Source: Thermodesulfobacteriota bacterium
GTDB taxonomy: Bacteria > Desulfobacterota_D > UBA1144 > Nemesobacterales > Nemesobacteraceae
Direction of reading: 5' to 3'
Length of the DNA: 64,000 bases
Assembly (NCBI GenBank): GCA_965116075.1
Contig: OZ220467.1
Location: 684,580-748,579 of the forward strand
The notes beneath the pieces are model-generated. The model did no database searches. It was not told the origin of the DNA and worked only from the letters and a program-made list of their open reading frames with translations. Made by a program: the position numbers and the translations under genes. Shown one piece after another: positions 6,258 through 49,400 of this stretch. Numbering within the stretch: position 1 is the stretch's first letter; every line of letters starts with the position of its first letter.

Positions 6258-6267
6258 TAGTGTTGCG

Positions 6268-8437: not shown

Positions 8438-9686
8438 CTAGTGTTGCGTCAAGTAATGATTTTTGGATAGATGGACTTGAGTCTGCAGCGGGCATCGGCA
8501 ACCGACATACGCCAGTTCACACCACGCTGGCTTGCGTTGACACGTTGCGACCACGCCGCCACCTCAGCCCGCAACTCGTCCAGGTCCCCGATCCGTCGAC
8601 CCTTCAGACACTGCCGCGTCAGACAACTCAACTCGCACTCAGTCACGTTCAGCCAACTCGCGTGCTTCGGAGTGTACTGGAACTTGATGCGTTGCCTCAG
8701 CCGCCGCGCCCGCTCCGGCTCAAAAGCCTCGTACAACGCTCCCTGCGTGTGCGTGTTGAGGTTGTCCAGCACCAGCGTGACCATCTCGCAGTCTGCATAG
8801 TGACTCTCCAGCAGAGCCGCCACTTCCTCCGCCCAGTCCAACTTGGTGCGCCGCTCTCGCACCGTCACCGTGCGCCAACCTGCCAGCGGTTCATAGAACA
8901 GGAACACCGAGGCCATGCCGGCCCGCTGATACTCGTAGTCCACACGGCGCGGATACTCCATGGTTGCGGGCAATGGCTGGCGGGTTTCCCCCACCATCTG
9001 TACCGGCTGTTCGTCCATGCAAACCACTGGCCGCCGCTCATCATAAGGCTCCTCGTAGGTCGACAGAACATCTTCCATGGCCGCCACATACTCCCCGTCC
9101 GCCTTCGGCGGAATCACCCAGTACTGCAGGTAGCGTCCCGCTATACCGTTTTTTTTAATGTCTTGTTGACGGTTTCATGGCTGATCGATTCACAGATGCC
9201 GACCTCAACCGCCTCGCTTGCCAGCAGACGTAGCGACCATTGGCCGTAGCCAGAGCAGCCGGTGGCGGCCCCAACCGCAACGCGATCAGCGCGGCTTCCT
9301 GCCGCCCGTCCAGAAGCTTCGGCGGCCAGGTGGATGGGTCCCGTTGCCGCCCGTTGAGGGCCAACTCAAAACCTTCCAGCACGCAACATTTACGCACGTT
9401 CGCGACAGTACGCTCCTGACAACCGTAGGCCTCCGCAACCTAGTGGTCGCACCAGTTCGGCCCGTCCGCATCAACTTGTAGCAGAATACGCGCCCGGCGC
9501 GCTTTCTGACTGCTACCCTTGAGTTTATTGATGACCTCCTGACATGTTTTGCGTTCAGCCTCCGACAGGCGCACAATGTACTTCTTCATGGTTCCTCCTC
9601 CTTTGTTGTAGAAAGACGGCTTGGGACACGAAGCCCTCGCCTTGAAACACATTATACAAGAAATGTTGCCTTTGACGCAACACTAG
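8438..9686 (-). mobile_element. IS630-family insertion sequence, copy B (degenerate)
   Basis: Same terminal repeats as copy A and ~93-95% identity. The DDE ORF 8449-9117 is intact, but the N-terminal part is split into 9155-9397 and 9440-9652 by extra indels. Confidence 0.85.
8449..9652 (-). pseudogene. IS630-family transposase of copy B, multiply frameshifted
   Basis: The N-terminal ORF begins ...MKKYIVRLSEAERKTCQEVINKLKG, the middle fragment reads MRKCCVLEGFELALNGRQRD..., and the C-terminal DDE ORF is 222 aa. Confidence 0.75.
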
Positions 9687-9744
9687 TATTTCGGCATCGG
9701 GGAGGCGCAAGATGATATTCGCCGCCGTCAAGGTGGTATTATTT

Positions 9745-9860: not shown

Positions 9861-10142
9861 TTCGCCATTTCTAGAGCTTCAACCAAAAATGGATCAGGAT
9901 AATTCACAGACATACCATGAAACTGAACTAAGTACCTGTCTGATTCCGTTTTCTTTGGAACCCTGTTGTAAACGTAATCACCGAGGGGGGCGAGTTCTTA
10001 TACAAATGACCTTTGATCTGGAACCTTAAAAGAACTTGTTACGGCGGCGTTAAGCGTTTTCTCGCTAGGAGAATGCGGGGGTCATCGGGCAATTCGTCTA
10101 GTTTCTCCTACTCGCTTTGATAAAGTATATTATCCGATCAAT

Positions 10143-11243
10143 ATGGAACTCGGATATTTCTCAATACCTCTTCATCCTGCCGGTTCTCCGCTTTTTCTGA
10201 CGCTTGACCAAGACCTAGAGCAGATGGTCTTTCTTGACCAGGTTGGTTTTTCAGAAGTGTGGATAGGGGAGCATTTCACCGCAGGTTGGGAGAATATCGC
10301 GGCCCCCGATCTGTTCATAGCGAAAGCTTCTACTCTTACGGAAAAAATAATATTTGGTACAGGTGTTTCCTGTTTACCTGAGCATGACCCTTTTATGCTT
10401 GCGCATAGAATCGCGGTTCTAGACAATCTGCTCAAGGGAAGGTTCTACTGGGGTGTGGGAGCGGGAAGTTTTATAGGGGATTTTGAGGCATTTGGCATAA
10501 ATCCAAAAACAGGAGAGCAGAGACAACTGATGAATGAAGCGCTTGAGGCGATACTGGACCTCTGGGATAACCCTACTCCGGGTACGTATAGTGGCTCAAA
10601 GTGGAGGTACACGGTTCCTAATCCTGTGGAAGAAGTTGGTCTCGGAGTGCACACAAAACCTTTCCAAAAGCCTCATCCTCCCATAGCTGTCGCGGGGATT
10701 TCTGAAGGTTCTTTGAGTCTGAAAACAGCGGGGGAGCACGGCTGGATGCCGATGAGCATAAATTTTGTGATTCCAGATGTCCTTAAATCTCACTGGGAGA
10801 TGTACGAGCAGGGAGCTTTTGCTGTGGGAAATAGTAATCCTGACAGGAAAAAATGGAGAATCTCAAGGGATATTTACGTGGCGGATACAACAGAGCAAGC
10901 TAGAAGGGATGTTAAGGGAAGCACTTTAGCAAGAGATTTCCGTGATTATTTTTTCAAGATAGTTCCAATGATAAGAAAAAACCTAGACTTGTTCAAAATT
11001 GATAAGTCAATGCCTGATAGTGAAGTTACGATTGACTATATGATTGACAACATGTGGCTTGTCGGAAGTCCAGAAGATGTAGCCGCAAAGATAGTACGGC
11101 TTTACGAATTTGTTGGAGGATTCGGAGTGCTTTTGGTAATGGGACACGAATGGAATCCAAAAGAGAAATGGGAGAAGTCTCTGACTCTTCTTAGAGAACA
11201 AGTCATTCCCATGGTGAAAAAGAATCTACGGGTAAAGGACTAA
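10143..11243 (+). CDS. LLM-class (luciferase-like) flavin-dependent oxidoreductase
   Basis: 366 aa containing GEHFTAGWENIAAPDLFIAKASTLTEKIIFGTGVSCLPEHDPFMLAHRIAVLDNL, typical of bacterial luciferase-like monooxygenases. Confidence 0.85.
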   Translation: MELGYFSIPLHPAGSPLFLTLDQDLEQMVFLDQVGFSEVWIGEHFTAGWENIAAPDLFIAKASTLTEKIIFGTGVSCLPEHDPFMLAHRIAVLDNLLKGRFYWGVGAGSFIGDFEAFGINPKTGEQRQLMNEALEAILDLWDNPTPGTYSGSKWRYTVPNPVEEVGLGVHTKPFQKPHPPIAVAGISEGSLSLKTAGEHGWMPMSINFVIPDVLKSHWEMYEQGAFAVGNSNPDRKKWRISRDIYVADTTEQARRDVKGSTLARDFRDYFFKIVPMIRKNLDLFKIDKSMPDSEVTIDYMIDNMWLVGSPEDVAAKIVRLYEFVGGFGVLLVMGHEWNPKEKWEKSLTLLREQVIPMVKKNLRVKD

Positions 11244-11265
11244 AACTGGCAAAAAACCGGCAATC

Positions 11266-11997
11266 TCATTTAGAATCCACAGTTGGGTCGAAATGAAGCC
11301 CACACTCCTTATCCGTTCCTTGTTCCCACCACCACCTGCCCGCTCTTGGATCTTCACCTTCTTTAATGGCTCTTGTACATGGAGCGCATCCGATGCTCGG
11401 ATAGCCCTTGTCGTGTAGTTCATTGTATGGGACTTTGTTTTCCATTATATAATCCCAGACTTGGTCTACGCTCCAATCAAGAAGTGGATTTACCTTAAGT
11501 ATCTTTCCGTGAAGGTAGTCAAGTTCAAATTTCTTAGCTACCGCCCGCTGTTCGGTCTGATCTTTTCTTATAGAAGTGATCCAGCAGTCAAGAGTCTTGA
11601 GATACGCGGTAAGAGGATTGGTCTTTCGTATCATACAACAACGTCTTCTATTTTCCTTGCTTTTATAGAAAAGATTCACTCCATAACGAGCCACCATCTC
11701 CTCCACTTCCACTTTTTTAGGGAAAATCACGTCAATGACGATTCCGTATTGGTTCCTTGCCTTGTCCATAATCTTGTATGTTTCTGATGGAAGTCTTCCA
11801 GTGTCTAAAGCGAAGACCCTAGCGTCAGAGTCAATCTTTACAAACATATCAAGAAGCACCATTCCTTGAATCTGGAAACTTGTTGAAAGAGCGGCTGAAG
11901 AACCAAGATTTCTAGACACCCAAGCAAGTATCTCTTGAGGGGAACTCGCCTCAAACTCTGAGTTGAGTTTTTCCACTTCTTTTTCAGAAAAATTCAT
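11266..11997 (-). CDS. cysH: Adenylyl-sulfate / phosphoadenylyl-sulfate reductase (CysH family; Cys-rich Fe-S type)
   Basis: 243 aa; the PAPS_reduct fold is visible. RRRCCMIRK plus ECGLHF give the CC...CxxC cluster cysteines typical of APS reductases. Confidence 0.85.
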   Translation of the reverse strand: MNFSEKEVEKLNSEFEASSPQEILAWVSRNLGSSAALSTSFQIQGMVLLDMFVKIDSDARVFALDTGRLPSETYKIMDKARNQYGIVIDVIFPKKVEVEEMVARYGVNLFYKSKENRRRCCMIRKTNPLTAYLKTLDCWITSIRKDQTEQRAVAKKFELDYLHGKILKVNPLLDWSVDQVWDYIMENKVPYNELHDKGYPSIGCAPCTRAIKEGEDPRAGRWWWEQGTDKECGLHFDPTVDSK

Positions 11998-12001
11998 AAT
12001 A

Positions 12002-13009
12002 TCAGAAAAGAGAACTTAAATGCGAAGCCAAGTTGTACTTGATGTAGATCATGCATATATAATAACTCACTCCGACAGTTATTAATGGGACAACAAACCA
12101 GAAAAATCCAATCCTAACGACATGTCTATTTTTCGAAGTCTGCGCAAATCCATGTTGAGCGCATGAAAAACCCACTACGCCTGCTGTGACTATTTCGGCG
12201 ATTGAAACTGGAATTCCATAGATTGACGCAAGTAATATTATCGTTGCGGCGGTGAATTCAACCGAGATGGCCCTTATTATGCATATCTCTGTGATCTTTT
12301 TTCCAACCGTATCAAGAACTCTGCCTCCTAGTAGAATAGCTCCCACTCCCATCGCCACGCCGGCAAGAATCGCCCCAGGAAAGGAATCTATCAGACCAAG
12401 ACTTACTATAGGGGCTATCGCGTTTGCTGAATTGTTGGCGCCTCCTGAAAACGCGATAAAAGTTCCTGATATGGTGACCAGCACGGTCAGTATTCCATTC
12501 ACTCTTTTTTCTGAGAAGTTACTCGCCAGATAATGCACTATTTTGAAATAAAAGAACTTGGCTACAGCGAAGTTTATTAACCAAGCCACTATTGGCGCGA
12601 CTATCCACCATTTGAGTACGCGGAAAAAACTGTCATGAGCAAGAGTGTTGGTATAAAGTCCAATACCAACTATTGCGCACACTATCGCGTGGGTCGTGGC
12701 TATTGGCGTGCGTTCAATGTTCGCCCAAGAGATAAATACTATTCCTACGAGCAAAATTATGAATATGAAACCTATTTCAGAGGAAAGAGTTTCAGATGGC
12801 ACTATACCCTTACCGACAGTTTCCACCACTGGAGCCCCGGCGGTAATAGCTCCCAAAAGAGCAAAAACAGCTATAAGCCACACAGCCTGTCTTTTGGATC
12901 TTACCCCGGCGCCATATGAGGTTGCCATGGATGCCGCGGAATTGTTAGCTCCTATGTTAAGGGCTAGAAAACCCGAAAGCAACAATATTACAATCAGTAA
13001 AGCGCTCAA
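12002..13009 (-). CDS. cysP: PiT-family inorganic anion (sulfate/phosphate) permease; by context CysP-like sulfate permease
   Basis: 335-aa polytopic protein with duplicated GANNSA(A/N)A signatures (PHO4/PiT). It ends 4 nt upstream of cysH, as in the Bacillus cysH-cysP arrangement. Confidence 0.75.
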   Translation of the reverse strand: MSALLIVILLLSGFLALNIGANNSAASMATSYGAGVRSKRQAVWLIAVFALLGAITAGAPVVETVGKGIVPSETLSSEIGFIFIILLVGIVFISWANIERTPIATTHAIVCAIVGIGLYTNTLAHDSFFRVLKWWIVAPIVAWLINFAVAKFFYFKIVHYLASNFSEKRVNGILTVLVTISGTFIAFSGGANNSANAIAPIVSLGLIDSFPGAILAGVAMGVGAILLGGRVLDTVGKKITEICIIRAISVEFTAATIILLASIYGIPVSIAEIVTAGVVGFSCAQHGFAQTSKNRHVVRIGFFWFVVPLITVGVSYYICMIYIKYNLASHLSSLF

Positions 13010-13111
13010 TAAATTTCTCCTAATCTACATTACTGGCAAAAACGGTTGAATAAAAATTAGTTGGTATCCTGATTTTCATGAAAGAATTAACGGATTTCAG
13101 AAGGAACTTTT

Positions 13112-13303
13112 TCAGAGAAGTTCCGAAATCCTGAATATGGAAAAGACGCTACACTCTATGTCCGAAAAATCCTTCTCGGTTCCCCTTTTGTGGTCAACTA
13201 GGCAGAATGCCCACTTGATCGAGGGTTCCGCGGACTCAACAAGATCAATCGTCTTTACCATGGAACCACACCCAGTTGTTCTTAAATCTTCTACAACCAC
13301 CAC
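13112..13303 (-). pseudogene. orotate phosphoribosyltransferase-like C-terminal fragment (remnant paralogue of pyrE)
   Basis: VVVVEDLRTTGCGSMVKTIDLVESAEP...SVFSIFRISELL parallels the C-terminus of the intact pyrE at 27103 (VVMVEDVINTGGSVLTAIEQAEAEG...KFFSIFKLSELL). An in-frame stop lies immediately upstream of the fragment. Confidence 0.4.
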
Positions 13304-13456
13304 ACTCCTGTCTCCTTTCCCAAACTCGCCTTACGTTAGCGTAAATGCCCCAAGCGGGATTGATTTGCTATTGGGAATTAGTTTTAATCCTTCTTTGCTT
13401 GTTCCCATATTGAGGGATTTCGAACTGAATGAAATTTAATCCCGGTATTTTACCCG

Positions 13457-14878
13457 TTGAAAAGAAAAATCAACAAAACCAATTTCCTTCTTCTATTGTG
13501 TGGAACCGCTATATTCGTTGTTCTATCTATTATCGCTAGGATTTCCATACGACTTCCTTCAGACGAATTCGAAAAAGACGTCATACCGTTTTTTGTAGCC
13601 CTTTTAGTCATGGCGGGAGTTTTTTATCTCGTAGCGGTGAAATTTTCTTGGAAAAACCGCAGTTGTTCCATTTTTTTAATACTGCTTTTCGGACTGGCCT
13701 TCCGAGTTACGTTTGTAAATTCAACTCCAATTCTTGAAAACGATTTTTACCGTTATCTGTGGGATGGAGCGGTTGTGGCGAGCGGAGTCAATCCGTATGA
13801 GCATTCGCCTCACAGTGTAAGCGAAGAGTTTCTGGGTGAGAAGCTTGAGAATCTGAAACAGCGATACGGCGCGACGCTTGAAAAAATAAATCATCCACAT
13901 ATAAAGACGATCTATCCGCCAGTCGCGCAATTCTTTTTCACCTTGTCCTATTGGATATCTCCCATGAATCTTGAGGCGTGGAGGATTTTGTTGCTTCTGT
14001 TTGATCTTACGACCTTCGCCCTTGTTCTACTGAGTTTGAAGAAATTGGGACTGCCTTTGCAGAACTCTTTGATCTACTGGTGGAATCCACTTTTGGTAAA
14101 AGAAATATTTAACTCTGTTCACATGGATGTTCTCGTTTTGCCGTTCGCGCTTGGCGCAATGCTTCTTTTTCTCTACGGAAGGAAAAAACTCTGGGCGCCG
14201 GCGCTTTCTATTGCTGCAGGAATTAAGTTGTGGCCCGCGCTTCTCTTTGGAGTGTTTATAAAAACATTGACAGGAAAACGGGAAAGGGTTGTGGCGGTAG
14301 CGCTTTTTATTTTTACTCTCGCGATTGTATTTTCCCCTATGATGGTGGCGCAAATCGATTCTTCTTCAGGCATTGTGGCGTATGGAAAAAGTTGGCAGAA
14401 CAATAGCCCGTTTTTTAGTCTGGTTGTCGGGGGGTCCAGATCTGTTTTACAAACGCTTGATATACACCCGGGGCATGCGCATTGGTATTCCAGAGTCGTC
14501 ATTTTGCTTATTATGCTTTTTTGGAAATTCTACGTAGTGTTTATGTGTAGGGACTTAGATATTTATAGAAAAACCCTTCTTATAGCAGGGGGGTTGTTTC
14601 TTTTGAGTCCGACGCAGTTTCCATGGTATTACACGTGGGTTGTTCCGTTTCTCTGCGTGGCTCGGAGTCCGGGTTTTTTACTACTTACCGCGCTACTTCC
14701 GCTTTACTACCTTCAGTACTGGCTTATTGATGGCAAGCATGGCGCGTTCACGAATATGGTAGTGTGGATAGAGTTTGCGCCCGTATGGATATTACTTGTT
14801 TGGGAATGGTTAAGATTCCGGCCGCAACGCAAAGAGTTGCTGACAGATCGCGATAAATCGCGTTTAGCGAATATGTAA
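13457..14878 (+). CDS. polytopic membrane protein, GT-C-like glycosyltransferase (DUF2029/GT87-like)
   Basis: 473 aa with at least 10 predicted TM helices, conserved acidic loops (ENDFYRYLWDG) and aromatic-rich periplasmic loops typical of lipid-linked sugar transferases. Confidence 0.45.
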   Translation: MKRKINKTNFLLLLCGTAIFVVLSIIARISIRLPSDEFEKDVIPFFVALLVMAGVFYLVAVKFSWKNRSCSIFLILLFGLAFRVTFVNSTPILENDFYRYLWDGAVVASGVNPYEHSPHSVSEEFLGEKLENLKQRYGATLEKINHPHIKTIYPPVAQFFFTLSYWISPMNLEAWRILLLLFDLTTFALVLLSLKKLGLPLQNSLIYWWNPLLVKEIFNSVHMDVLVLPFALGAMLLFLYGRKKLWAPALSIAAGIKLWPALLFGVFIKTLTGKRERVVAVALFIFTLAIVFSPMMVAQIDSSSGIVAYGKSWQNNSPFFSLVVGGSRSVLQTLDIHPGHAHWYSRVVILLIMLFWKFYVVFMCRDLDIYRKTLLIAGGLFLLSPTQFPWYYTWVVPFLCVARSPGFLLLTALLPLYYLQYWLIDGKHGAFTNMVVWIEFAPVWILLVWEWLRFRPQRKELLTDRDKSRLANM

Positions 14879-14893
14879 GGGTTTTTATTCCTG

Positions 14894-16246
<1,353 letters not shown>

Positions 16247-16393
16247 CTAAAAAATACATTTTGCCATTTTTACTGTCAACGAACAAAAAAATCTCCAAGT
16301 TATAGAGTCTTTTAAGTCTAGGCTTTTGCCGTAGTCAAATAATCCTTGCGATTGACACTTACGCGCCCTTTCGGTAATCTGGGAAAAGTGAAT

Positions 16394-16672
16394 ATGGAAC
16401 AGCGGGCGGTTATTCTCGTAAAGGGTAGGGTGCAGGGAGTATGCTTTAGGGCATTGACTGCGCGTGTCGCTAAAAAACTCTATCTCAAAGGGCGTGTGGA
16501 AAATCTTAGGAATGGGGATGTGAGAATAGAGGCGGAAGGAGAGACGGAGAATTTAAGAGAACTTGCCAAATGGTGCCGCAAAGGTCCTCCTTTGGCAAAA
16601 GTGGACTCGGTCGAATTCAGTTTATTGCCTCCTAGCGGATCATATTCGGATTTCCAGATAAAAAGATCATAG
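16394..16672 (+). CDS. acyP: Acylphosphatase (start moved to ATG 16394)
   Basis: ILVKGRVQGVCFRALTARVAKKLYLKGRVENLRNGDVRIEAEGE...WCRKGPPLAKV matches the VQGVGFR...G.V.N..DGSV acylphosphatase signatures. Confidence 0.85.
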   Translation: MEQRAVILVKGRVQGVCFRALTARVAKKLYLKGRVENLRNGDVRIEAEGETENLRELAKWCRKGPPLAKVDSVEFSLLPPSGSYSDFQIKRS

Positions 16673-16684
16673 AGGAGTTCAAAA

Positions 16685-17323
16685 TTGATACTTAAATGCA
16701 TTCCTGGCGGAATATTTGCTGAGAACTGCTACATCATAGGGGATGAGCGAACAGGGGAAGCGATGCTTGTTGACCCTGGAGAACAGATAAGAGAAATAGA
16801 GCAGGAAATTGAAAGATCTGGGGTTAAAGTAAAAAAGATAGTTAACACCCATGCGCATCTTGACCATGTGGCTGGCGTTGAGTTTTTCAAAAAGCGTTTC
16901 GGCATCCCTTTTTACATACACCGTGAGGAGCAGCGCGTGCTTGATGCGCTCCCTGAGGCTAAGCAGCGGTTCCCTGGATTTGATTTCGTTGAAGTTCCCC
17001 AAGTGGATGGCTACGTTCAGGAAGGGGACTTTGTTTCAGTTGGAAATCTCAGGGGTGAGATACTGCTTGTTCCGGGGCACACTTGGGGACATATATGCTT
17101 TGTTTTTGGGGAAACGATATTAGCGGGAGATACTGTTTTCGCCGGAAGCGTTGGAAGAGTGGACCTCACTGGTGGGACCAACATGGAAGAACTTGTTGGA
17201 GCGATTCGCTCCCAGATACTCAGGTATCCAGAACACTACCAAATTCATCCTGGTCACGGCCCCAGCACCACAGTGGGGATTGAGAAAAAATCTAATCCTT
17301 TTATTCTCGAAATGGGCGTATAA
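16685..17323 (+). CDS. MBL-fold metallo-hydrolase (glyoxalase II-like)
   Basis: THAHLDHVAG (HxHxDH) together with downstream H/D ligands (PGHTWGHICF, DTVFAGSVGRVD). Confidence 0.85.
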   Translation: MILKCIPGGIFAENCYIIGDERTGEAMLVDPGEQIREIEQEIERSGVKVKKIVNTHAHLDHVAGVEFFKKRFGIPFYIHREEQRVLDALPEAKQRFPGFDFVEVPQVDGYVQEGDFVSVGNLRGEILLVPGHTWGHICFVFGETILAGDTVFAGSVGRVDLTGGTNMEELVGAIRSQILRYPEHYQIHPGHGPSTTVGIEKKSNPFILEMGV

Positions 17324-17329
17324 AAAGGA

Positions 17330-17606
17330 GATGGAGCTGCAGAGATTTGTCAAAATTGCGGCGTTAGCGGTAGTTGTTCTCGTTGTGGGCGCTTTATTTT
17401 TTCGCGAGATATCTGAGCTCTTTATGCTGAAGAATGAAAACAAAAAAATAGAAAAAAACATAGAGGAACTCAGAAAGCAGAACGAAGAGTACAGACGGGA
17501 GATAGAAGCTGTAAAAAATGACAAGAAATACCTTGAGAAAATACTTAGAGAAGATCTCGGAATGATAAAAGAACGGGAAAAAATATTCAGGTTCAATGAA
17601 GAATAA
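17330..17606 (+). CDS. ftsB: FtsB/DivIC-like septum formation initiator (short TM plus coiled coil)
   Basis: MELQRFVKIAALAVVVLVVGALFF has one TM helix and is followed by a heptad-rich NENKKIEKNIEELRKQNEEYRREIEAVKNDKKYLEKILREDLGMIKEREKIFRF. The tracked ORF 17151-17606 overlaps the MBL gene, so ATG 17330 is preferred. Confidence 0.6.
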
Positions 17607-18850
17607 CGCATTGGATCTGACTAACTCTGTATCTCTCTAAATTCTGCATAATCTCTTAGCAGAGCCGAGATGTAAAAACTTCTGTAAAACCGCAATTTAA
17701 GTTCACCTGTCTATTTCTTGAGGCATTTGAGTTATAGCGATTTTTGGGGAGTGGTTTTGACGTAATGAGGACATATGAACAGTATGTTCACCACTGTTTG
17801 AGTCCGTATTGATTCGTATTTGAGTAATCTGACGGGCGGATTTCTTGATTTCCCCGCAGTTTGCTGCTGATTTCCGCCCAATTATCAGCCTTTGGGCGCA
17901 ACAATCCATTCACCGTCATTGCCGCTAAATTCCTCTGGTCAAATTTCCGTATTACCCGTATTACTGAGAAAAACCTTACCAACCTGAGGATGACGCCCAG
18001 AAACAAGAGACCTCATCTTGTCAGCCTTTGAGGTTATTTGTTCTATAGAATTCCTAAGCTTGTACCCCCTCTCCCATATTACAGAACCATGCGGAGTCGG
18101 CGTAAAAATACGAGGTTTCTTCTCCAACGAGACGCGTATTGATAATCCATATTCACTGTTCTTACGACCCGTATCTTTGTGACGCTTCTTCCTGCCTATA
18201 CAATTCAGTTTATGCGCTGCCGGAGAACAACGAAACTTCAAGGTCCCTCGCTTATCTTCACGTTCCCCCCTCACCAACTTACTCTTGGTCTTGTGTTGTA
18301 GGACAGCGACACCAACCCTCGCCCTCCTCCATGTAGAATGTGTTGTTAATATCTTCTCAAAAGTCTTATGATCTTTTGCCCAGCGAAATAGTCCTAATTC
18401 TGCTTCTCCTGCCTACACATAATGATTTATATCAATAATTGGGGTCAGTTCTATATTCATTCCAAAACTTTCTCTTCAATTCTCTACTGTCAAGCCCCGG
18501 GTCCCCCGCTGAAATATTCGCATTGCTCCACCAACTCACGGTTCTGTGGAAGCAACTTGTCTATCATCCTGCCCAACTCCTTAACCTCTGACACAGAAGC
18601 ATTGGTAAGACTCATCTAGTATCTCATATTTGCTATCGCCAATTACGTGCAGTTTATAACCAAACGACTTTGATTTCTCTACGATTGAGCCAACCTAGAA
18701 CCGAACTCTATTACTCACATACAACCGAGAAAGGAAAGATAGACACACCAGTGACAACGTACTTGGCAAGACAGAAACCAAAAAATGCAGAGTCCTTCTT
18801 CAAAAGTGATTTCCTTATGCTATGTCCGAAAAAGTATGGGGTTGAAAACA

Positions 18851-19333
18851 CTATGACAACTCAAGCATCTTTTTCAGTCGAATACCACTTTGACTGAGTT
18901 GCCTGGCCTGAGGAGAGTTTTTTGGCATTTTCATGCTACCGCTGGCAATCCAGGTATATCGAATATCTTTATTGGTGCGGGCGGTCATCTTTTTGAGTTG
19001 TTCAGCATCTTTATTCAACCAGTCTTTTAGCCATTGTAATTTTTTGAGAACCGCTGAAACTTCCTTTGTCGTAGCCGGATGAACCTCTACCCAAACTGCC
19101 CATTGGCTCTTATGCTTTGGATGTTTATATCCTATACCATAGTCCCATCGGGGCGAATTAGCGTGGCGAGGCTCAAGTTTAAGAGCCAAGTCGAGATTTA
19201 TACTTCCTGTCAATCGTCGCGGGTTTGCGCATTTTATCAATTTCCCGTGCTTTTTACCTGATGCTTGCTTTTCACTTCGGTATGCGCAGTTCACCGGATG
19301 TGACGTAGACCTCACCGCATCTTTGAAATTCAT
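18851..19333 (-). CDS. 160-aa partner protein of the upstream ATPase (RloB/DUF4276-like?)
   Basis: Its start overlaps the ATPase stop by 4 nt (translational coupling). The product is basic, with no TM helix or signal peptide, and has no strong motif. Confidence 0.55.
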   Translation of the reverse strand: MNFKDAVRSTSHPVNCAYRSEKQASGKKHGKLIKCANPRRLTGSINLDLALKLEPRHANSPRWDYGIGYKHPKHKSQWAVWVEVHPATTKEVSAVLKKLQWLKDWLNKDAEQLKKMTARTNKDIRYTWIASGSMKMPKNSPQARQLSQSGIRLKKMLELS

Positions 19334-20517
19334 AATCCTTTAGATAATCCCTTCCCGGCTACTTCGGCGACAACATCTCCAACTCTTCCGGAAAACTCTG
19401 TCAGACCACCCCACCCCTCTTCGGCAACGTTCTTTGAGCCGGGATCAAGGTTTGATATATCACAAACCTTACCATCGCGTTTAAAGTAGTAAGTCTTAAA
19501 TTTGCTTTTGAGCGAACAGGTTGCGAGATCTTTTGTCTTTTGCGTACTGGGAAGATTAAGAAGTTTGACAATATCTCCAGAACTACCGCCATTTTTTTGC
19601 AAGAATTGGATTGCCCAAACGATATCAAGAACATGAGACGAATGCGTGGAGAGACAAATCCGATAACCTCGTAGTCGCAACTCCAAGATAAGGTTGATCA
19701 CAGCGCCAATACCGTTTGGATGCAAACCCATCTCAGGCTCTTCAATTACTACCCATTCAAGTTTTTCGCGCTTAGCTACCTTTGATGAGGGTAAAAGCCA
19801 GTAGATCCCAAGTAATAACGGTACGAACTCTCGCTGCCCAGCTGACCAAACCAAGTATGGTAGAGCATGTTCAGCATCTGCGCGTGCACGTAACACTAAG
19901 CGGCTTTGGTGGTATCTAGACGTTTGAGTACGAAGACGAAACCCACCGAAGATGTGCTCTTCAATCGGTCCTCGTAGAACCTTATCTAGCCGTTGGGAAC
20001 GCGGAAAAACTTTCTCATTAAAACCAATCTCATTCTGCACTATATAATGGAGTTTATCGCCAAAGTCTCGCAGAACGAATGGGTCGCCCGCTTTGAAGTC
20101 GGAAAACGGATATGGCATACCGTCTCGTAAACTCATGACTCGTTGAGCTGGAATATAAAACATTTTTTCTGAAGGTATAACTCTTGGCGTACGAGAATGA
20201 GTTAAGGTTGATATTTTGACTTCCTTTTGCGAATTGCCCAAAAACAGGCGGCTCTTTTCTTTTGACCAAATTGAGGACATCCCTTCCCCAAGGTACAGAT
20301 CAAAGAAACTATGGAAATTATCATCTTGATCTTTGATCACCAAACCAGACTTGCGCATAGTTTGGTGTATCGCCTGTTTGTCTTCAAGAAGTTTTAGAAG
20401 TTGCAAAAAGATGCTTTTTCCAGTGGCTTGTGGTCCGACAAATATAGTCAGATCACCAAACCTTACGTCCGCTTCCTTGATCGGTCCGATTTCATGCGCT
20501 CTTATCCGTTTAATCAT
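19330..20517 (-). CDS. AAA_21/AAA_15-type ABC-like ATPase (OLD/PtuA/AbiL-like family)
   Basis: Walker A FVGPQATGKS, Walker B-like VVIEEPEMGLHP and H-loop LSTHSSHVLD, 395 aa. This is the architecture of ATPases found in two-gene phage-defence systems. Confidence 0.85.
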   Translation of the reverse strand: MIKRIRAHEIGPIKEADVRFGDLTIFVGPQATGKSIFLQLLKLLEDKQAIHQTMRKSGLVIKDQDDNFHSFFDLYLGEGMSSIWSKEKSRLFLGNSQKEVKISTLTHSRTPRVIPSEKMFYIPAQRVMSLRDGMPYPFSDFKAGDPFVLRDFGDKLHYIVQNEIGFNEKVFPRSQRLDKVLRGPIEEHIFGGFRLRTQTSRYHQSRLVLRARADAEHALPYLVWSAGQREFVPLLLGIYWLLPSSKVAKREKLEWVVIEEPEMGLHPNGIGAVINLILELRLRGYRICLSTHSSHVLDIVWAIQFLQKNGGSSGDIVKLLNLPSTQKTKDLATCSLKSKFKTYYFKRDGKVCDISNLDPGSKNVAEEGWGGLTEFSGRVGDVVAEVAGKGLSKGL

Positions 20518-21265
20518 ACTCTTTGTATCGCCTTAACTATAACTCCGCATCATACCACAGATTACAACTACAAACTTACACGCTAAAAACTCGCCAATTA
20601 AACTATAAAATATAACACACAAAAAAGCCGAGGCATTTGCGCTGTCCAAAATGTGGATGCATATCAAAGGCTTTTAGAAGCCCCCAAAATACCCAAAAAA
20701 AGTCCTAAAATCGGCTAATGTAAGCCAAACCCCACAAATTCACTCCTCACTAAAATCGGTTGATATAACCTCTGTAAAAATTCCCCAAAAATAGAAATAA
20801 CTTGATAATCTCACTTGTTTTTAATGTCACTATAAAAGCGTCTTCATAGGTTGAAATTATAATTTGCTAGCAGAATCTTCTCTTCTCCTATAAGAGTGAG
20901 TGAATGTTGTTTTTGGTCATCCTCAAGGAAAAAGCCCCCACCCCAAAATCGTTGTAGCGTAATTATCTCAAGTTAACAACAAATTTATCATCTACAAAAG
21001 AAGTAAACCCGTAGCGGTTCCACAATCATCAAAGGGAATCAGCATCAAGCATCACTACATCGCAAATGCCTTTTTCTTTTTTTAGCTTTGCTCCTTTAGT
21101 TGATTTGTTATTCTTTGCGGTACGCTTTTTAGTTGGTAAAGTCCTTGAGAGTAAATTTTCAAGAATTGCGCGCAGGGCTGAGTTTGGAAAAAAGTCTAAT
21201 CAATGTCAGATGCGAAAAATGACTTTACAATTTTTTTTGTATCTGAGGGTGCCGGAGAATAAAAG

Positions 21266-27102: not shown

Positions 27103-27627
27103 TTAGAGAAGTTCTGAAAGCTTAAAGATAGAGAAGAACTTGTACCCCTTTTCCTTAAAGGTCTTTTCCGTATCTTTTCCTCTGTCAATGACGCAAAGAA
27201 CGCGATCAACCTCTGCGCCCTCTGCTTCCGCTTGCTCAATAGCCGTTAATACGGACCCTCCAGTGTTAATCACATCCTCAACCATAACAACCTTACAACC
27301 ATCTATCGGTTCGCCTTCTACGGCTTTTTTAGTTCCGTGCTCTTTTTTTTCTTTTCTCACTATGAATCCGCGAAGTGGAGAGTCTTCAGCGTTCTCTGAA
27401 TTATAACTTCTAAGAACAGTCGCCCCTACGATGGAACACGCTCCTACGGACAAAACGCAACCCACCGCTTTTATTTCCTTATCACTCGCAATCTCATCAA
27501 GGAATATTTTTGATATTAGGTTTATTCCTTTTGGAGATAGCGCGGTAATTCTAACATCAACATAAAAATCACTTGACTCCCGCGAAGCCAAAGTGAAATT
27601 TCCGCGCAGAACAGACTTGCTCCTCAA
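27103..27627 (-). CDS. pyrE: Orotate phosphoribosyltransferase
   Basis: The PRPP-binding motif VVMVEDVINTGGS is present. The N-terminus GNFTLASRESSDFYVD matches PyrE (GEFTLKSGRKSPYFFN). TTG is the only canonical start codon in frame. Confidence 0.85.
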   Translation of the reverse strand: MRSKSVLRGNFTLASRESSDFYVDVRITALSPKGINLISKIFLDEIASDKEIKAVGCVLSVGACSIVGATVLRSYNSENAEDSPLRGFIVRKEKKEHGTKKAVEGEPIDGCKVVMVEDVINTGGSVLTAIEQAEAEGAEVDRVLCVIDRGKDTEKTFKEKGYKFFSIFKLSELL

Positions 27628-27872
27628 GATTCCCCTTAACTCTTCTCTATCTCTATTGATTGGGCTAAATCTCCTAGATAACGCGACTGGAGATCCTGAG
27701 AAAAACGATTAGACTCAGGCAACAAAAGCGTATTACTGAACTGAACTATAACAAAATAAAGTTTTTGGTCAAAAAAGTAAGGACTTCTTAGCGATTCGGA
27801 GTAGTCTTCATGGAAATCACGAAAAACCCTACCAAACGCACATGCGCGTTCTCAATAGCGTAAACTTCTATT

Positions 27873-27902
27873 TTGACAGAAATCATTAAAGTGTGGTAAA
27901 CT
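27873..27902 (+). promoter_or_regulatory. candidate sigma70 promoter of the giant gene (TTGACA - 18 nt - TGgTAAACT extended -10)
   Basis: ttgaca at 27873-27878 and tg.taaact at 27894-27902. The predicted +1 falls at ~27909, the A of an ATG, which would give a leaderless transcript. Confidence 0.4.
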
Positions 27903-27908
27903 GACAAA

Positions 27909-27983
27909 ATGACTCCTGTTACTCTACCTGCTGCTGCCCCCCCCCCCCCCTTAAAAATTCAGATGCGGGGCCGAAGCGCGTGA
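27909..27983 (+). promoter_or_regulatory. 24-codon uORF (MTPVTLPAAAPPPPLKIQMRGRSA*) containing the poly-C tract; its TGA overlaps the GTG start of the giant gene (GTGA)
   Basis: ATG 27909 is in frame 3 and the stop falls at 27981-27983. Adding one C to the tract would put this ATG in frame with the signal-peptide ORF. Confidence 0.35.
27937..27950 (+). repeat. homopolymeric C14 tract 30 nt upstream of the giant-gene start
   Basis: ctgctg-cccccccccccccc-ttaaaa. It lies exactly at the GC-content boundary. Confidence 0.9.
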
Positions 27984-28453
27984 GAGACCTGCGCGGGACG
28001 CTTCGCTTGGCGGCGCTGGCCGCCGTTCTCCTGTTCGCGCTGAGCGCGGGCCTTGCGCCCCAGGCTGCGCATGCCACGTGGGGGGTCTTGACGGCCACCC
28101 CGGGCGATGGGCAGGTTACGCTGACCTGGACTTGGACGCACTCAAGACCTAACTTCAGCCACTGGTTTTTCAGGTATGTAAGAGCTGGCCAACCTTATCC
28201 CGGGTATGACTGTTTGCCTAGATTTAATATCTGCTCCATTGACGACCCAAAGTACAGACTGACAGGGGCTCATCATCGCACCCAGACGATTACCGGACTC
28301 ACCAATGGGGTCGAGTACGTGTTTGAGGTACGCGCCCATGTTCCTAATACGGTTTTGGAGGTGAGGGCGACCCCGTCGCGCTATCCCATTGCCCCGAAGG
28401 GCGTACGCGACGCCGGGAACCAGCCAGGTCACCTTGTCCTGGGACGCTCATAA
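27980..28453 (+). CDS. giant secreted repeat protein, N-terminal segment (signal peptide plus first FN3-like domain), frame 2; separated from the main frame by a +/-1 frameshift
   Basis: MRDLRGTLRLAALAAVLLFALSAGLAPQAAHA-TWG... has the n-, h- and AHA-cleavage regions of a Sec signal peptide. It is followed by an FN3-like fold (TITGLTNGVEYVFEVRA). The frame ends at TAA 28451, while frame 3 opens at 28365. Confidence 0.7.
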   Translation: MRDLRGTLRLAALAAVLLFALSAGLAPQAAHATWGVLTATPGDGQVTLTWTWTHSRPNFSHWFFRYVRAGQPYPGYDCLPRFNICSIDDPKYRLTGAHHRTQTITGLTNGVEYVFEVRAHVPNTVLEVRATPSRYPIAPKGVRDAGNQPGHLVLGRS

Positions 28454-31400
28454 CGACTCGCGCGTCACGCGCTGGGAGTACGAGCAGACCAGCGGGGGCA
28501 CAACCGGGAACTGGAAGAAGATCTCCGCGAGCAATGCCTCAACCACCAGCCACACGGTGACGGGTCTGACCAACGGCACGCGGTACGGCTTCAGGGTCCG
28601 CGCGGCAAGCGATGGTCTCGGCGCCCCGTCGGCCTCCGTGTTCGCAACGCCACGGCCCGCTCCCTGCGCTTTGAGAATTGCCAGTGTCAGTGGGCCGGGT
28701 CCGACGGTCGCGTTCCGTTGGGGGCCCACCAAGGCAAATTGCGGCGACATCAGCCGGACGCAGGTTCAGAAGAAACTCGCCAGCAGCCCGGACTGGAGCG
28801 GGAGTGTCTGGGAAACCCTGTCCACGAATTACTATCGAAACTCCGGTGTCGCATTTACCGTGGACGACACCTTGCGGGTGAGTCTTGCCGAGGGCAACAG
28901 CTACCATGTGCGCGTCCGCGCGGTCAACGAAGGCCTCACCGTCACGTCCGAGGAAGGCGTCGCCGGCCCGCCGTCCTCGGAAACTCTTCTGTGGCTCGGT
29001 CCTCCAGGGTCTCCAACCGGGCTGAAAGCCGCGCCCTTTCAGGCTGCGATCCAGCTCACCTGGAACCAGCAGGCGTCAGGACAGAAGGTGACCGGGTGGG
29101 ATGTTCGGAGGAAGGAGGGCGCCGGCAGTTACGGCGAATGGGGCCGTATTACGGGTTCCGGCGCGAACACCGTCCTCCATTCGGCGAGCGGGCTGACGTC
29201 CGGGGTCGACTACACGTTTCAGATTCGGGCGGTGAACGCCGCCGGCGACGGTCGGGCTTCCGAAGAAGTGACCGAAACGCCGACCGGCGTGACGATCTCC
29301 CAACCCGCGCTGACGGTAGAAGAAGGTAGCAGCAGCACCTATACGGTGGTGCTTGATGCCGAGCCGTCGGCCGACGTCACGGTGATCGTGGGCGGCGCTG
29401 CGGCCGGCGTGTCGGTGAATCCGCCGTCGCTGGTCTTCTCGCTGCTGAACTGGAACCAGCCGCAGACGGTCACGGTCTCCGCGGCCGAGGACGACAACGC
29501 GGTTTCCGAACCGGTGACACTGACCCACAGCGCCAGCGGCGGAGGCCTGGACTCGGTGCTCATCCGCACGGTCGTGGTGACCGTGACGGAGAACGAAACG
29601 GCCGGATTCGCCCTGTCGGAGTCCGATCTGGAGCTGGAGGAGGGCGAGTCCGGCTCCTGGACGGTGGCGCTGACCTCCGAGCCGACCGCCGATGTGACGG
29701 TCACCATCAGCGGCGCCCCGAGCGGCGTGACGGTGACTCCGCCCACGCTGACGTTCACGGCCGCGGACTGGCAGACGCCGCAGACGGTGATGGTCGCGAC
29801 GGTCGACGATGAAGACGCGGCGCCGTTGCCCGCGGTGACGCTGACCCACAGCGCGTCCGGCGGCGACTACGGCTCGCTCACCGCCTCGGTTGCGTTGACC
29901 GTGACCGAGAACGACACGGCTGGGCTGACGTTCTCGGATGGCGACAAGGAGATCAGCCAGCTGGAGGTCATCGAGGACGGGTCGGGCAACTACATGGTGG
30001 CGCTGACGTCCGAGCCGACCGCCGATGTGACGGTGACCATCACGCCGGGGCCGGGCGACGTGACGGTGCAGTCGGGGTCGCTGACCTTCACTGCCCTCAA
30101 CTGGAGCGCCGCGCAGCAGGTGGTTGTCCTCGCGGCCGATGACGACGACGCGAAGACGGATCCTGCGGTGACACTGACCCACAGCGCGTCCGGCGGCGAT
30201 TACGGCTCGGTGACCGGCGTGCTCACGGTGGCCGTGCTGGAACATGATCCGCCCAGGAAGCCCGTGAACTTCAGCGCGACGGCGGGCGACAGCCAGGTGA
30301 CGCTGTCCTGGAACGATCCGCAGAATCCCGACATCAGCGGCTGGGAGTTCCAGCAGGCCGTGCGCGGCGCCAGCTTCGGCGCGTGGACGCCCATCCCCGA
30401 TTCCGACGCCGCGACCACCAGCCACACGGTCACGGGTCTGACCAACGGCGTCTTCTACAGTTTCAAGCTCCGCGCCGTCGCCCAGCTCCGGGAGTCCCTC
30501 AGGGGGGAGAAGGAAGACGCCGAGGGCGTCAGCTCCGACGAGATCAGCGCGCTGCCGCGCCGGGTGGGCAAGAACGTCACCCTGTTCGTCTCCGACGCAC
30601 AAATTGAAGAAGGACAGGCCGGCACGACACCTGTCTTGATCCGTCTCGTTCTCGGTGAGCCGGCGCCCGCTGGCGGGCTCGGCCTCGCCTTCGAGGTCGA
30701 TGGAACCTCGACGGCAACGGCGAGCGCGCCGGTCGCGACCAGTTGCTCGGCGCCAAACCCGATGGATGCGGACATGTGCTGGCCGCGGGGCGCCCGTGTT
30801 CTTGTGCCCGCAGCCCAGGACGTTGCCGTGCATCAAGTCGCTGTCCGAGGCGACCGGGCGATCGAGCCGAACGAGACCCTCGTGCTGAATGTCGTGCCCG
30901 CCATCGATGGCTGGACCGGGGACTCGGCCACCATCACCATCGTCGACGACGAGGTGGCGCCCGCCGCGCCGACGGGCCTCGCCGCCGGGCCGCGCAACGA
31001 ACAGGCGCTCCTCACCTGGGACGACCCGCAGAATCCCGGCATCACGCGCTGGGAGTTCCAGCAGAAGGAAGGCTCGGGCGGCAGCTACGGCGCCTGGACG
31101 GCCATCCCGGGTTCCGATGCCGCGACCACCAGCCACACGGTGACGGGCCTGACCAACGGCACGGAGTACGGCTTCAAGGTGCGCGCGGTGAGCCCCCGCG
31201 GCAACGGCGCCGAATCGGCCGAGGCGACGGTGACGCCGGGAGCGGTTCCCGCCGCGCCCACTGGCTTCAGGGCGACCCCAGGCGACGCGCAGTTAGAGCT
31301 GTTCTGGGATGCTGCCCCGGACAACTCCGGCATCCTTCGTTGGGAAGTGCGGTTCAGGAAGGGCAGTGAGGACTACCAACAACCGTGGGCGCCGATCCCG

Positions 31401-46400: not shown

Positions 46401-49400
46401 ACATACCGGATCACGCTTAGCGATGCCGACGGCTATGCGGTTGGCGACGATGTGACGGCTGACGGCACGTTGAACGACGGCGCGGCGACGCCCTGCAAGG
46501 TGTCGGTGACGAACTACCGCGCGATTGACGACAGTGGTTTTCTGCCGGTTTACTCGATTTCGTTCGGTTTGCGGATACCGGCGAACTGTGGTCCGATCAC
46601 GGGGATGCAGCGTCAGATCAAGACCTTGAGTCAGGGCTGGGGCGATGTGGAGTGGGTGGACCTGGAGAATGCGGGTCTGCGTACGTTTGCTAACAGCGCC
46701 ACTGCCAGGACGCCTTCCGGAATCGAGCTGGTCTTCCTGAATTCCGGCAGCGGCAAGCATCAGGTTCGGGTGCGCGCGCAGAACGGCGCGCGAGTCGGTC
46801 CGGCATCCGACGAGGTGTCGGTGACGTTCGAAGTCCCGCCCACACCGAGCGGGCTGAGCGCGACCCCTGGCGCTGCCTCGGTGACGCTGACCTGGAATGC
46901 GCAGTCCGGGGAGCAGATCACGTCGTGGAACGTCCAGTACAAGCGGGGTTCCGAGTCGTACCGGAACCTGCACGTGGCGGATGCCGGGGACGGCAGCACG
47001 ACGACGGCTACGGTGACGGGTCTGTCGGCAGAGGAGTACACGTTCCGTTTGCAGGCTAGGAACGAGAACGGTCTGAGCGCGGCCTCGTCGACGGTGACGG
47101 CGACGCCGACAGCAGCGACCGTGGTTCCGCCCGCTCCGACGGGCGTGAGGGCGACGGGGGGTGACGGCGAGGTGACGCTGTCGTGGACCGACCCGCAGAA
47201 CGATACGATCACGAAGTGGCAGTACCGGCAGAAGACGGGTAGCGGCGCTTACGGTGAGTGGACGGACCTTGAGCACAGCCGGACACGTAGCGCGTTTCCG
47301 ACGCTGACGGGTACGGTTGGTGATCTGACGAACGGGAGTTCGTATACGTTCGAGCTTCGCGCGGTGAACGGTGTCGGCGCTGGCGCGGCTTCTTCTGAGG
47401 TTACGGTGACGCTGGGCGCGGATGCGGATGCGGTATCGCTGAGCGTTGCGGACCTGACGGCGGCGGAGGGCGGTACGTTCGCGTTCACGGTGACGGCGAC
47501 GCCTGCGCCGGCCTCGGAGATCAGCTTCAAGTACACGGTGACGGCGGAGACCGGCGATACGGCGACTGCCGATACGGATTTCACAGAGGTTGATACGGCG
47601 ACCGAGGTGACGATTGCGGCGAACGCGACCACGGCGACGATAACGGTGTCGGTGACGGATGACGATCTTGATGAGGACAATGAGACGTTTACGGTGACGT
47701 TGTCAGAGCAGACCTCCGGGGTGACGCTCTCTGACGCCACTGCGACAGGGACGATAACGGATGATGATAATTCCCCGGTATTGGAAGATATAGAGGATTT
47801 AACGATAAGGCTGGGGCAGTCGGTGGATATAACTGCGGTGGCGACGGATGCGGACGACGATGACATCGGCTATGTCTGGACGCGTAAGTCCGGGGAGACG
47901 TCCCCTGCGATACCTGGTAGCGCGGATCTGGAAGTGGCTCGGTTGATGTTCAAGTCTACCTCGGTGGGTACGTACACGATGACGGTGACCGCATCTGACG
48001 GCAATGGGAACAGCGATACGGAGGAAGTGGAGATCACGGTGGTACGGGCGCGCGTGGTCTCGGTGCCGGCGACGCTGTCGGTGGCGGAGGATGATGGCGA
48101 TGCGGTGGTGACGGTGACGACGGAGGGCGCGTTTGGTGAGAATGTGACGTTTAACGTGACGTACGGTGGTACGAGCGCGACGGGGCACAACGACCCTGCC
48201 AGCGGCGACTATGACAATGATGCGGTGACGGCGATAACGTTTGGAGCGGGCGACCTGACAAAAGACATTGAGGTGCCGATAACGGATGATAATCTTGAAG
48301 AGGCTGATGAGACGTTCACGGTGACGATTGCCCCTGCGACCGCCACGCTGCCTGATGGTTTCGCAATGGGAGATGCCACGACGACGGTGACGATAGAGGA
48401 CAATGATACGCAAGCGCCGTGTAAGGTGGAGGTGGTGGATGTATCAACGACGGCGGATGCCAGTCCGTTCCCCGGCGGTCAATCAATTTACTCAATATCG
48501 TTTAAGGTGAGGATACCTGCGGATTGCGGCGCTATAACCAATATGCAGAGGCGTATAAAGACGAACGGGCAGTGGGGTGAATGGACGGATAATGAGGTGT
48601 TGCGCAGTTTTGCTGACAGCGCTACGGCAAGGACGCCTGCGGAGATGGAGTTGATACTCGTAGCGGATGGTAGCGCGAGGGAGGTGCAGGTTCGGGCGTT
48701 AAACGGTAGTAAGACAGGTCCTGAGTCAGAAGCTGTTGGCGTCACGTTTACCGCGCCGGGCAAGCCGGGTGGTTTGAGCGCTACAGGCGGGGCTGGTTCC
48801 GCAGCGTTGAGTTGGGATGGGCAGACGGGAGAGCAGATCACGGCATGGGTGGTGGAGTACAAGCGTGGTTCAGAGAGTTATAAGAGTAAGGTGATAGTGG
48901 ATGCTGGAGATGGTAGCGCTACAGCGACGACTATCACGGGTTTAGCGTCTGAGGAATACACTTTTCGTATAAAGGCGCGTAATCCAAACGGAGACAGTCC
49001 TTATTCAGATGAGACGACAGCTACGCCAGAGGCGGTGACCGCTGCTCCTGCGGCGCCGACGGGAGTGACGGGCAGTCCGGGGGACGGGGAAGTGAGGTTG
49101 GAGTGGGCAGACCCAGAAGATGCGAACATAACGAAGTGGCAATATGAGCAGAAGGCCGGTAGCGGCGCTTATGATGGGGCTTGGACGGACATCACGGTAT
49201 CAAAGAGCGGATCTCTTTCCAGGTTAACGGGTACGGTCACGGGTTTGACAAATGGCGTCAGTTATACGTTTAAGGCGCGCGCGGTGAATAGCGCGCTAAA
49301 TAGCGCTGTCGCCGGCTCGGGCAACGGCGCGGAATCGGATGAGGTGACGGTAGTGCCGATAGCGGCGCCGACGGGATTAACGGTGACGCCTGCGGGCAGT

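Follow-up and report, generated by a model that had tools for sequence, protein, structure and literature searches.

A 2-bp frame disruption between the first two FN3 domains of a giant FN3/Calx-beta surface-protein gene that carries a poly-C tract at its 5' end

Introduction

Very large repetitive proteins are found on the surfaces of several bacteria. SwmB of marine Synechococcus is reportedly a giant repetitive surface protein, and Chlorobium chlorochromatii is said to carry giant ORFs. Sponge symbionts carry 'eukaryotic-like' FN3/cadherin/Calx-beta proteins. When a bacterial protein is assembled from two overlapping reading frames, programmed +1 frameshifting is of the prfB CUU_UGA type, and programmed -1 frameshifting is of the dnaX and IS-element type. 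Contingency loci with poly-G/C tracts occur in genes of Neisseria, Haemophilus, Campylobacter and Bordetella (for reviews, see for example PMC2831843 and PMC8355987).

The locus described here lies in a 64,000-nucleotide stretch of DNA, referred to as the window. It contains the 5' end of a giant gene for a secreted or surface protein, more than 35.6 kb in length and composed of FN3/Calx-beta/PKD repeats, which is split over two reading frames close to its beginning. The split was compared with homologous loci, and its possible origins were weighed against each other together with the composition and the surroundings of the gene.

Results

Overall organization of the split gene

The region 27600–29000 was composed of an AT-rich intergenic region, a C14 run, and then GC-rich coding sequence. 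The coding sequence was divided between two overlapping ORFs, as follows.

27980–28453, plus strand: frame-2 ORF of 157 aa, from GTG 27980 to TAA 28451–28453, with an fn3 match (E = 5e-4)
28365–64000, plus strand: frame-3 ORF of at least 11,878 codons, 63–70% GC, running off the window

Frame 2 was open from 27905, and its earliest start codon was GTG 27980. The ORF was composed of a predicted Sec-type signal peptide (27980–28075), FN3 domain 1, and 16 out-of-frame residues (VRDAGNQPGHLVLGR) before the TAA, so that its C-terminal end read ...EVRATPSRYPIAPKGVRDAGNQPGHLVLGRS*. The signal peptide (VRDLRGTLRLAALAAVLLFALSAGLAPQAAHA, followed by TW) was called by eye from its n-h-c layout and an AXA motif, and ended in ...APQAAHA before TW. 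Frame 3 opened at 28365, immediately after TGA 28362–28364, read ...AYATPGTSQVTLSWDAHNDSRVTRWEY, and contained no stop codon through base 64000. The longest open stretch in the other two plus-strand frames was 551 codons. The two ORFs overlapped by 88 nt (28365–28453), and the frame ends and openings in the sequence agreed with the coordinates and overlap given for both ORFs in the initial annotation.

The frame-3 product contained at least 33 fn3 and at least 19 Calx-beta domains of Pfam, in addition to PKD/He_PIG/Big_9 domains. Read together, the two ORFs showed the layout of a giant FN3/Calx-beta surface protein, in which an N-terminal export signal (here the one called by eye) was followed by FN3/Calx-beta/PKD arrays. 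Within the gene, the region 48000–56000 differed from the first 20 kb, with the GC content falling to 56–60% and a strongly positive GC skew (+0.27 to +0.38). This composition probably reflects a different repeat module or origin.

Comparison with homologues and position of the lesion

Homologues were searched with a protein query containing a repaired N-terminus, followed by a scan of species-representative genomes. An ENA metagenome assembly was one source, of two matches (P0003 and P0002). The loci that covered the junction of the two frames were as follows.

L001 (P0003): orthologue on a 2.0-Mb cyanobacterial contig of 60% GC that carries Psb34
L002 (P0002): 7.3-kb metagenome contig, 96% identical to the window
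L004 (Pseudohongiella), L005 (Binatia), L006 (Pseudomonadales), L007 (Thermoanaerobaculia) and L008 (Gammaproteobacteria): chromosome-level MAGs
L009 and L010: paralogue pair in another Pseudomonadales MAG, 54% identity

The N-terminal region of L004–L008 shared 92–93% amino-acid identity, and the DNA was about 95–96% identical to the window. Every listed locus was contiguous across the junction (L001, L002 and L004–L010). The comparison with orthologues, which had been proposed as a check, gave a uniform result: eight homologous loci (L001 and L004–L010) were in frame through the junction. In L004–L010 a single frame was already open ahead of the signal peptide and remained so up to the locus end (2,328–2,607 codons), and in L004–L008 the open frame exceeded 2,550 codons in each copy. 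Both window ORFs aligned to these single contiguous frames, which bears out the proposal that they are one gene split over two frames.

The alignments placed the lesion as follows.

28403–28407, plus strand: frameshift site, GTACG in the window and GTCACCG in all close homologues, a net loss of 2 bp

At the junction, the close copies read GGCGTCACCGCGACGCC (PKGVTATPG), whereas the window read GGCGTACGCGACGCC. In codons, L002 and L004–L008 had AAG GGC GTC ACC GCG ACG CCG (KGVTATP), and L001 had AAA GGC CTC ACC GTG ACG CCG (KGLTVTP), compared with AAGGGCGTACGCGACGCCG in the window. The sequence GTCACCGCG of the homologues thus corresponded to GTACGCG in the window, with a net change of -2 bp that is equivalent to +1 in frame terms. 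Compared with GTC ACC, the window lacks the C of the first codon and one of the two C in the second; a deletion of 2 bp combined with a single substitution describes the difference equally well. The initial annotation had placed an indel within 28401–28414, in sequence that was not a homopolymer. The site fell inside that interval, and neither a simple repeat nor a homopolymer was found at the lesion site GGCGTACGCGACG. Its size had been given as a single base gained or lost, which the net 2-bp loss contradicts. The linker between FN3 domains 1 and 2, guessed as PKGVRATPG (KGVRATPG), reads KGVTATPG in the homologues, and the intact form is PKGVTATPGTSQ.

Across the approximately 7 kb shared with the five MAG copies (L004–L008), the 2 bp at 28404 were the sole frame-breaking difference. 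When the window was compared with these MAGs up to ~34.9 kb, where the alignment was reliable, all of the remaining indels were multiples of three. The MAG frames were still open past ~34.9 kb, where the repeat region is divergent. The two adjacent ORFs were therefore collinear with an intact homologue and separated by an indel that, relative to the intact relatives, was not a multiple of three, as in a split gene. The gene is split, at this exact position, and the split is unique to the window copy.

Age of the lesion

The constraint on the window copy was compared with that on the other copies in order to judge the age of the lesion. Frame 3 was undisrupted elsewhere across 35.6 kb. Under neutrality, a 35.6-kb ORF is expected to gain a stop codon with 95% probability by ~0.3% divergence, and the private divergence of the window copy was ~1%. 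In the first ~6.5 kb past the junction, the private substitutions of the window copy were 26.5 synonymous and 43.5 nonsynonymous, compared with 26 and 40, respectively, for the other five copies pooled. Pairwise dN/dS values were 0.38–0.60 throughout. Since there was no second lesion, and since the private substitutions showed no relaxed selection, the lesion is either very recent or a consensus error. It is young in both cases.

Decay within the family was seen in L001, where the region 10001–20831 was cut into more than 10 ORFs. L001 is a decayed copy of the giant FN3 gene family. Two features of this locus were a CAG-to-TAG nonsense change at 10828–10830 and a G12 run at 10986–10997.

Mutation or consensus error

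The evidence leans, with little more than even confidence, towards a genuine, very recent, non-programmed inactivating mutation that is possibly still polymorphic in the population. In this event, two bases would have been lost from the non-repetitive linker between FN3 domains 1 and 2 in the window copy only. The signal peptide and FN3 domain 1 would be translated as the 157-aa fragment ending at TAA 28453, and the remaining 11,878 or more codons would be left in the +1 frame, without a signal peptide and with their first ATG only after ~900 nt. Export of the large protein would presumably be abolished by the loss.

The main alternative is an assembly or polishing artefact, in which the DNA of the organism contains GTCACCGCG and the two bases are missing only from the consensus, for instance because reads of near-identical copies from co-assembled genomes gave it mixed support. 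We regard it as possible, at clearly less than even confidence. An error would be expected to leave just such an otherwise intact 35.6 kb, with substitutions that look constrained. Related assemblies contained at least six other copies with 95–98.6% identity, and 95–98% identical copies in other genomes of the metagenome series could in principle confuse polishing. Consensus errors do occur in this type of data, as the L002 contig indicates. L002 contained five 1-bp indels (236, 1574, 1585, 6387 and 6474), four of them in short C/G runs, and at all five positions the window matched the MAG copies. L002 is thus either error-laden or decaying, and its indels are probably consensus errors of a low-coverage contig.

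Several observations stand against the artefact. Homopolymers are the usual place of long-read consensus errors, and the lesion lies outside any homopolymer. It also affects two bases, at two positions. No other frame-breaking error was found in the 35.6 kb of this GC-rich gene or in the flanking genes examined, where polA, thrC, sufD and cysH were full length; the rate of frame-breaking indels in the assembly is therefore low. In addition, a unique AT-rich flank lies only ~450 bp away, so long reads should assign the region unambiguously. The loss is accordingly presumed to be present in the DNA itself and not just in the consensus.

Two points count against a real mutation. The lesion needs two events, either a pair of 1-bp deletions separated by 2 nt or one 2-bp deletion together with a substitution, which is unusual for one spontaneous mutation. 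Furthermore, exactly one lesion in an ORF of more than 35 kb requires a mutation that was caught very early. In the collections searched, exact-sequence look-ups with polA, with its 100%-identical match P0092, with the S13 peptidase and with the 157-aa ORF gave no second assembly of the strain. A template for the deletion was also sought in a second GTACGCG close by, at 28328. Of the possible double deletions in the vicinity, ~9% (40/440) had a local match of the same length; the match was thus not significant, and this candidate was rejected.

Improbable alternatives: internal start, recoding and switching at the site

If the split were tolerated, an internal start or termination-reinitiation would allow expression of the large ORF, its product would be exported in some other way, and the two parts would be separate genes under selection. 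The absence of any second lesion in 35.6 kb and the private-change dN/dS pattern, which resembles that of intact copies, are compatible with such an arrangement. However, frame 3 had no ATG for ~900 nt past its opening, the TTG and GTG codons in this stretch had no evident Shine-Dalgarno sequence, and none of these candidate starts lay near the frame-2 stop. The product would lack the conserved Sec signal that was present in every intact homologue, and a recent event explains the same data more simply. A tolerated split is therefore improbable.

Programmed +1 ribosomal frameshifting or another form of recoding, which the initial annotation had offered as an option, would join both frames into a full-length protein. 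The geometry alone fits, with an 88-nt frame overlap and an intact downstream ORF. A scan of 28365–28453 for X_XXY_YYZ heptamers, for sites of the CUU_UGA or CUU_AGG type and for A/T runs was negative in each case, and the junction codons GGC GUA CGC allow no re-pairing in the +1 frame. The minimum free energy of the region was -39 kcal/mol, compared with a shuffle mean of -39.2 (z = 0.06), and neither a stimulatory RNA structure nor a Shine-Dalgarno-like element was found beside the frameshift site. A shift elsewhere than at the junction would put out-of-frame residues in place of a conserved FN3 strand. The two-frame arrangement was not conserved, as the eight homologous loci each had a single frame. 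Given that neither a slippery motif nor an unusual RNA structure is present and that the shift is not conserved, recoding is rejected as very improbable.

The family may use repeat-mediated switching, though at the 5' poly-C tract and not at 28403–28407, and a reversible phase-variation switch at the frameshift site itself is hardly credible because no simple sequence repeat is present there and all of the homologues have the same intact sequence.

Promoter match, short ORF and poly-C tract at the 5' end

The region upstream of the signal peptide contained three features.

27873–27902, plus strand: sigma-70-like promoter match, from a consensus scan only, with a putative function
27909–27983, plus strand: short frame-3 ORF, ATG...TGA, MTPVTLPAAAPPPPLKIQMRGRSA*, 24 codons, passing through the poly-C tract
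27937–27950, plus strand: poly-C tract, C14; no other C/G run in the window reaches 8

The promoter match was composed of TTGACA, an 18-nt spacer, and TAAACT preceded by TG, with a predicted transcription start at ~27909. ATG 27909, in frame 3, was located 7 nt past the -10 element, and the C14 tract began 28 nt after this ATG. The TGA of the short ORF overlapped GTG 27980 as GTGA. ATG 27909 would be in frame with the signal peptide only at C15 or C12. On account of the position of the promoter match, and because L004, L007 and L008 have an ATG in frame before the tract, ATG 27909 is a candidate for the true gene start if the tract were C15 or C12. Since the ATG lies only 7 nt after the promoter match, the transcript may be leaderless or nearly so. 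Translation could use a leaderless start, or could be coupled to the signal-peptide ORF when the tract is C14.

Tracts were located at the same position in the homologues, with lengths of C14, C21, C16, C18, C9, C36, C19 and similar. Their positions included the following.

L004, 5597–5610: poly-C tract
L005, 5657–5677: poly-C tract
L007, 5606–5621: poly-C tract
L008, 5659–5676: poly-C tract
L011, 5705–5740: poly-C tract
L037, 5376–5394: poly-C tract
L040, 4654–4690: poly-C tract

The giant FN3 genes of many MAGs, from different phyla, had such a tract at the 5' end, with lengths of C9 to C36 and rarely composed of G. A set of 78 related loci contained 31 C/G runs of at least 9, and 19 of these were located within 300 nt on either side of the opening of the gene frame, a zone that represented 4.1% of the sequence (binomial p = 4e-19). 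The coding strand carried C in 17 of these 19 runs. The upstream ATG was in frame in 7 of ~18 loci, close to the one-third expected by chance. The window tract is a long homopolymer near the 5' coding region of a surface-protein gene, as in a contingency locus, and the recurrence of such tracts suggests slipped-strand phase variation.

The poly-C tract was also considered in relation to the lesion. The tract is one base short of C15, and this shortfall and the 2-bp loss sum to three. The two do not compensate for each other because frame 3 contains many stop codons between 27981 and 28364, and this explanation was rejected.

In L003, a contig of a related Dadabacteria genome, two HemolysinCabind/collagen-like genes had a G9 run inside the promoter spacer, TTGAC(A/T)...TAGAAT (297–326 and 10265–10291). 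This layout is the classical promoter-spacer form of phase variation; the contig had 2x coverage, and the tract length is uncertain. A literature search on homopolymer phase variation in sponge symbionts found no paper.

Low-GC segment in FN3 domain 1

One segment upstream of the lesion differed in composition from the rest of the gene.

28141–28330, plus strand: low-GC hypervariable segment in FN3 domain 1, 48.9% GC, with AGA as 4 of the 6 Arg codons

The GC content of 48.9% was lower than in the upstream signal-peptide part (71–72%), in the next 6.4 kb (69%) and in the rest of the gene in the window (63%). The segment was ~2.6 sd under the mean of 190-bp windows, and no other stretch in the first 20 kb of the gene was as low; equally GC-poor 190-bp windows occurred near 48.8, 52.0 and 54.8 kb. 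The homologous stretch had 51.6–52.2% GC in L004–L008, compared with 69%, and 50.2% in L001, compared with 59–60%. The genomes that host these copies have 60–72% GC. Since the GC content was equally depressed in every homologue, the segment is evidently an inherited property of FN3 domain 1 and not host DNA. An origin as host-derived or inserted DNA was rejected in view of the homologous and equally low-GC copies in genomes of 60–72% GC. The AT-rich character of 28141–28330 noted in the initial annotation was real. It is unconnected with the neighbouring frameshift, and the segment is conserved in every homologue.

Identity to the homologue consensus was 85.9% in this segment, which also contained a 6-nt indel, compared with about 97% elsewhere; no part of the 5' region was more divergent. 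At 28205–28262, the window read PGYDCLPRFNICSIDDPKYRLTG, and the five MAG copies read HEYNVVRGIGSIYDSKYNLIG, a difference that included the 6-nt indel. Because this stretch diverged while its flanks were ~97% identical, FN3 domain 1 appears to contain a hypervariable segment, which fits a variable surface segment of the domain.

Genomic context and copies in other lineages

The left 27.9 kb of the window had a GC content of 43–45% and contained sufD, dinD, cysH, a sulfate permease gene, thrC, and genes for an S13 peptidase, polA, a methyltransferase (MTase) and a phosphoribosyltransferase (PRTase). The closest named relatives of polA were Candidatus Dadabacteria, with 67–69% identity. In L003, polA was 82% identical, and the order PRTase-MTase-polA-S13 was kept. 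Beside the PRTase gene, L003 had a different gene, encoding a HemolysinCabind protein on the other strand, and the giant gene was absent at the syntenic site. The GC content rose to 63–70% at ~27960 and stayed high through the window end. The jump from 43–45% in the flank marks the giant gene as a probable foreign island in a Dadabacteria-like chromosome. A tRNA scan for a tRNA gene as a marker of an integration site found none.

Traces of mobile elements were observed in the left flank.

6254–7510 and 8435–9694: two IS-like copies of ~1.25 kb, 2.18 kb apart and 93–97% identical
7565–7730: third, partial IS-like end between both copies
3565–4122, minus strand: ORF with a weak integrase-core (rve) match, under the Pfam curated cut-off

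The IS-like copies had terminal inverted repeats (ACTAGTGTTGCGTCAAG...) and a minus-strand transposase in two overlapping ORFs, with an HTH_32/HTH_23 N-terminal part. The ORF at 3565–4122 was located in a gene-poor stretch (~1950–4650), and may be a mobile-element remnant.

The copies in six genomes shared 94.8–98.6% DNA identity, with dS values of 0.026–0.05; the comparison covered window 27960–64000, L004–L008 from 6001 to the end of each locus, and L002. The closest pairs, Pseudohongiella and Thermoanaerobaculia (98.6%) and Binatia and Gammaproteobacteria (97.8%), crossed phylum or class labels, and the gene tree conflicted with the taxonomy. At least 5.4 kb upstream of the gene was unrelated between copies, except for the last 40–290 nt. 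Provided that the chromosome assemblies are sound and not chimeric, this pattern suggests a recent cross-phylum transfer of a very large gene. Many of the related loci were from MAGs named Poriferihabitaceae or Poriferisocius, and L001 resembles a small symbiotic cyanobacterium of 60% GC, so that a sponge microbiome is the probable source.

The JGI metagenomes were scanned in two ways. An exact-pattern scan for either junction allele gave zero matches, and a protein-based scan gave only distant FN3 proteins, with at most 37% identity and no close relative. A literature search found no description of the giant gene family or of its near-identical cross-lineage copies.

Discussion

The mechanism of the frameshift is ordinary, being a non-programmed 2-bp loss or a consensus slip; what is noteworthy is the affected gene. 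In annotation, the 157-aa ORF and the giant ORF should be treated as one gene, with this copy flagged as disrupted. The split should not be annotated as a recoding site or as two genes.

A broader picture is put forward tentatively, at less than even confidence. The frameshift may be a hard knock-out on top of a soft switch, in a gene family that was recently exchanged among at least six lineages of one host-associated, probably sponge, community, and that is controlled by slipped-strand changes in a 5' poly-C tract. The assembled C14 tract would itself be out of register with ATG 27909. If this picture is true, phase-variable and horizontally shared giant adhesins would be common among these symbionts. 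The recurrent 5' poly-C tracts would provide a testable approach to surface variation in uncultured symbionts. The occurrence of a gene of more than 35 kb at 95–98.6% identity in Dadabacteria-like, Binatia, Thermoanaerobaculia and several Gammaproteobacteria genomes, with a metagenome contig equally close, would be an unusually large recent cross-phylum transfer, if the assemblies are sound.

Comparison with known systems

The window copy resembles young split pseudogenes of large bacterial surface-protein genes. As in these, the adjacent ORFs align to one contiguous homologue, and the indel shifts the frame, falls outside any repeat and is confined to one lineage; L001 represents a case of advanced decay. 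The window copy differs in having only one lesion in more than 35 kb, and the event would thus be extremely young or not real in the DNA.

When compared with the frameshifting of prfB, dnaX and IS elements, the locus shares the two overlapping frames that would need joining into one protein. It differs from these systems in that shift-prone codons and a stimulatory element, whether a Shine-Dalgarno sequence or an RNA structure, are absent, and in that the homologues do not share the frameshift.

The likeness to the poly-G/C contingency loci of Neisseria, Haemophilus, Campylobacter and Bordetella concerns 27937–27950 and not the frameshift site. A surface-protein gene has a C14 tract at its 5' end, 28 nt past an ATG; the tract varies from C9 to C36 between homologues, and the upstream ATG is in frame in some loci and out of frame in others. 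Unlike those pathogen loci, the genes belong to MAGs of uncultured Dadabacteria, Binatia, Acidobacteriota and Gammaproteobacteria, in which switching is hypothetical.

The encoded protein is similar to the giant and 'eukaryotic-like' surface proteins represented by SwmB, the Chlorobium ORFs and the proteins of sponge symbionts. It has an N-terminal signal peptide, tens of FN3/Calx-beta/PKD modules and more than 11,000 residues, and its composition differs from that of the host genome. In contrast to those systems, near-identical copies of the gene (95–98.6% DNA identity) are located in unrelated contexts in at least six distant lineages.
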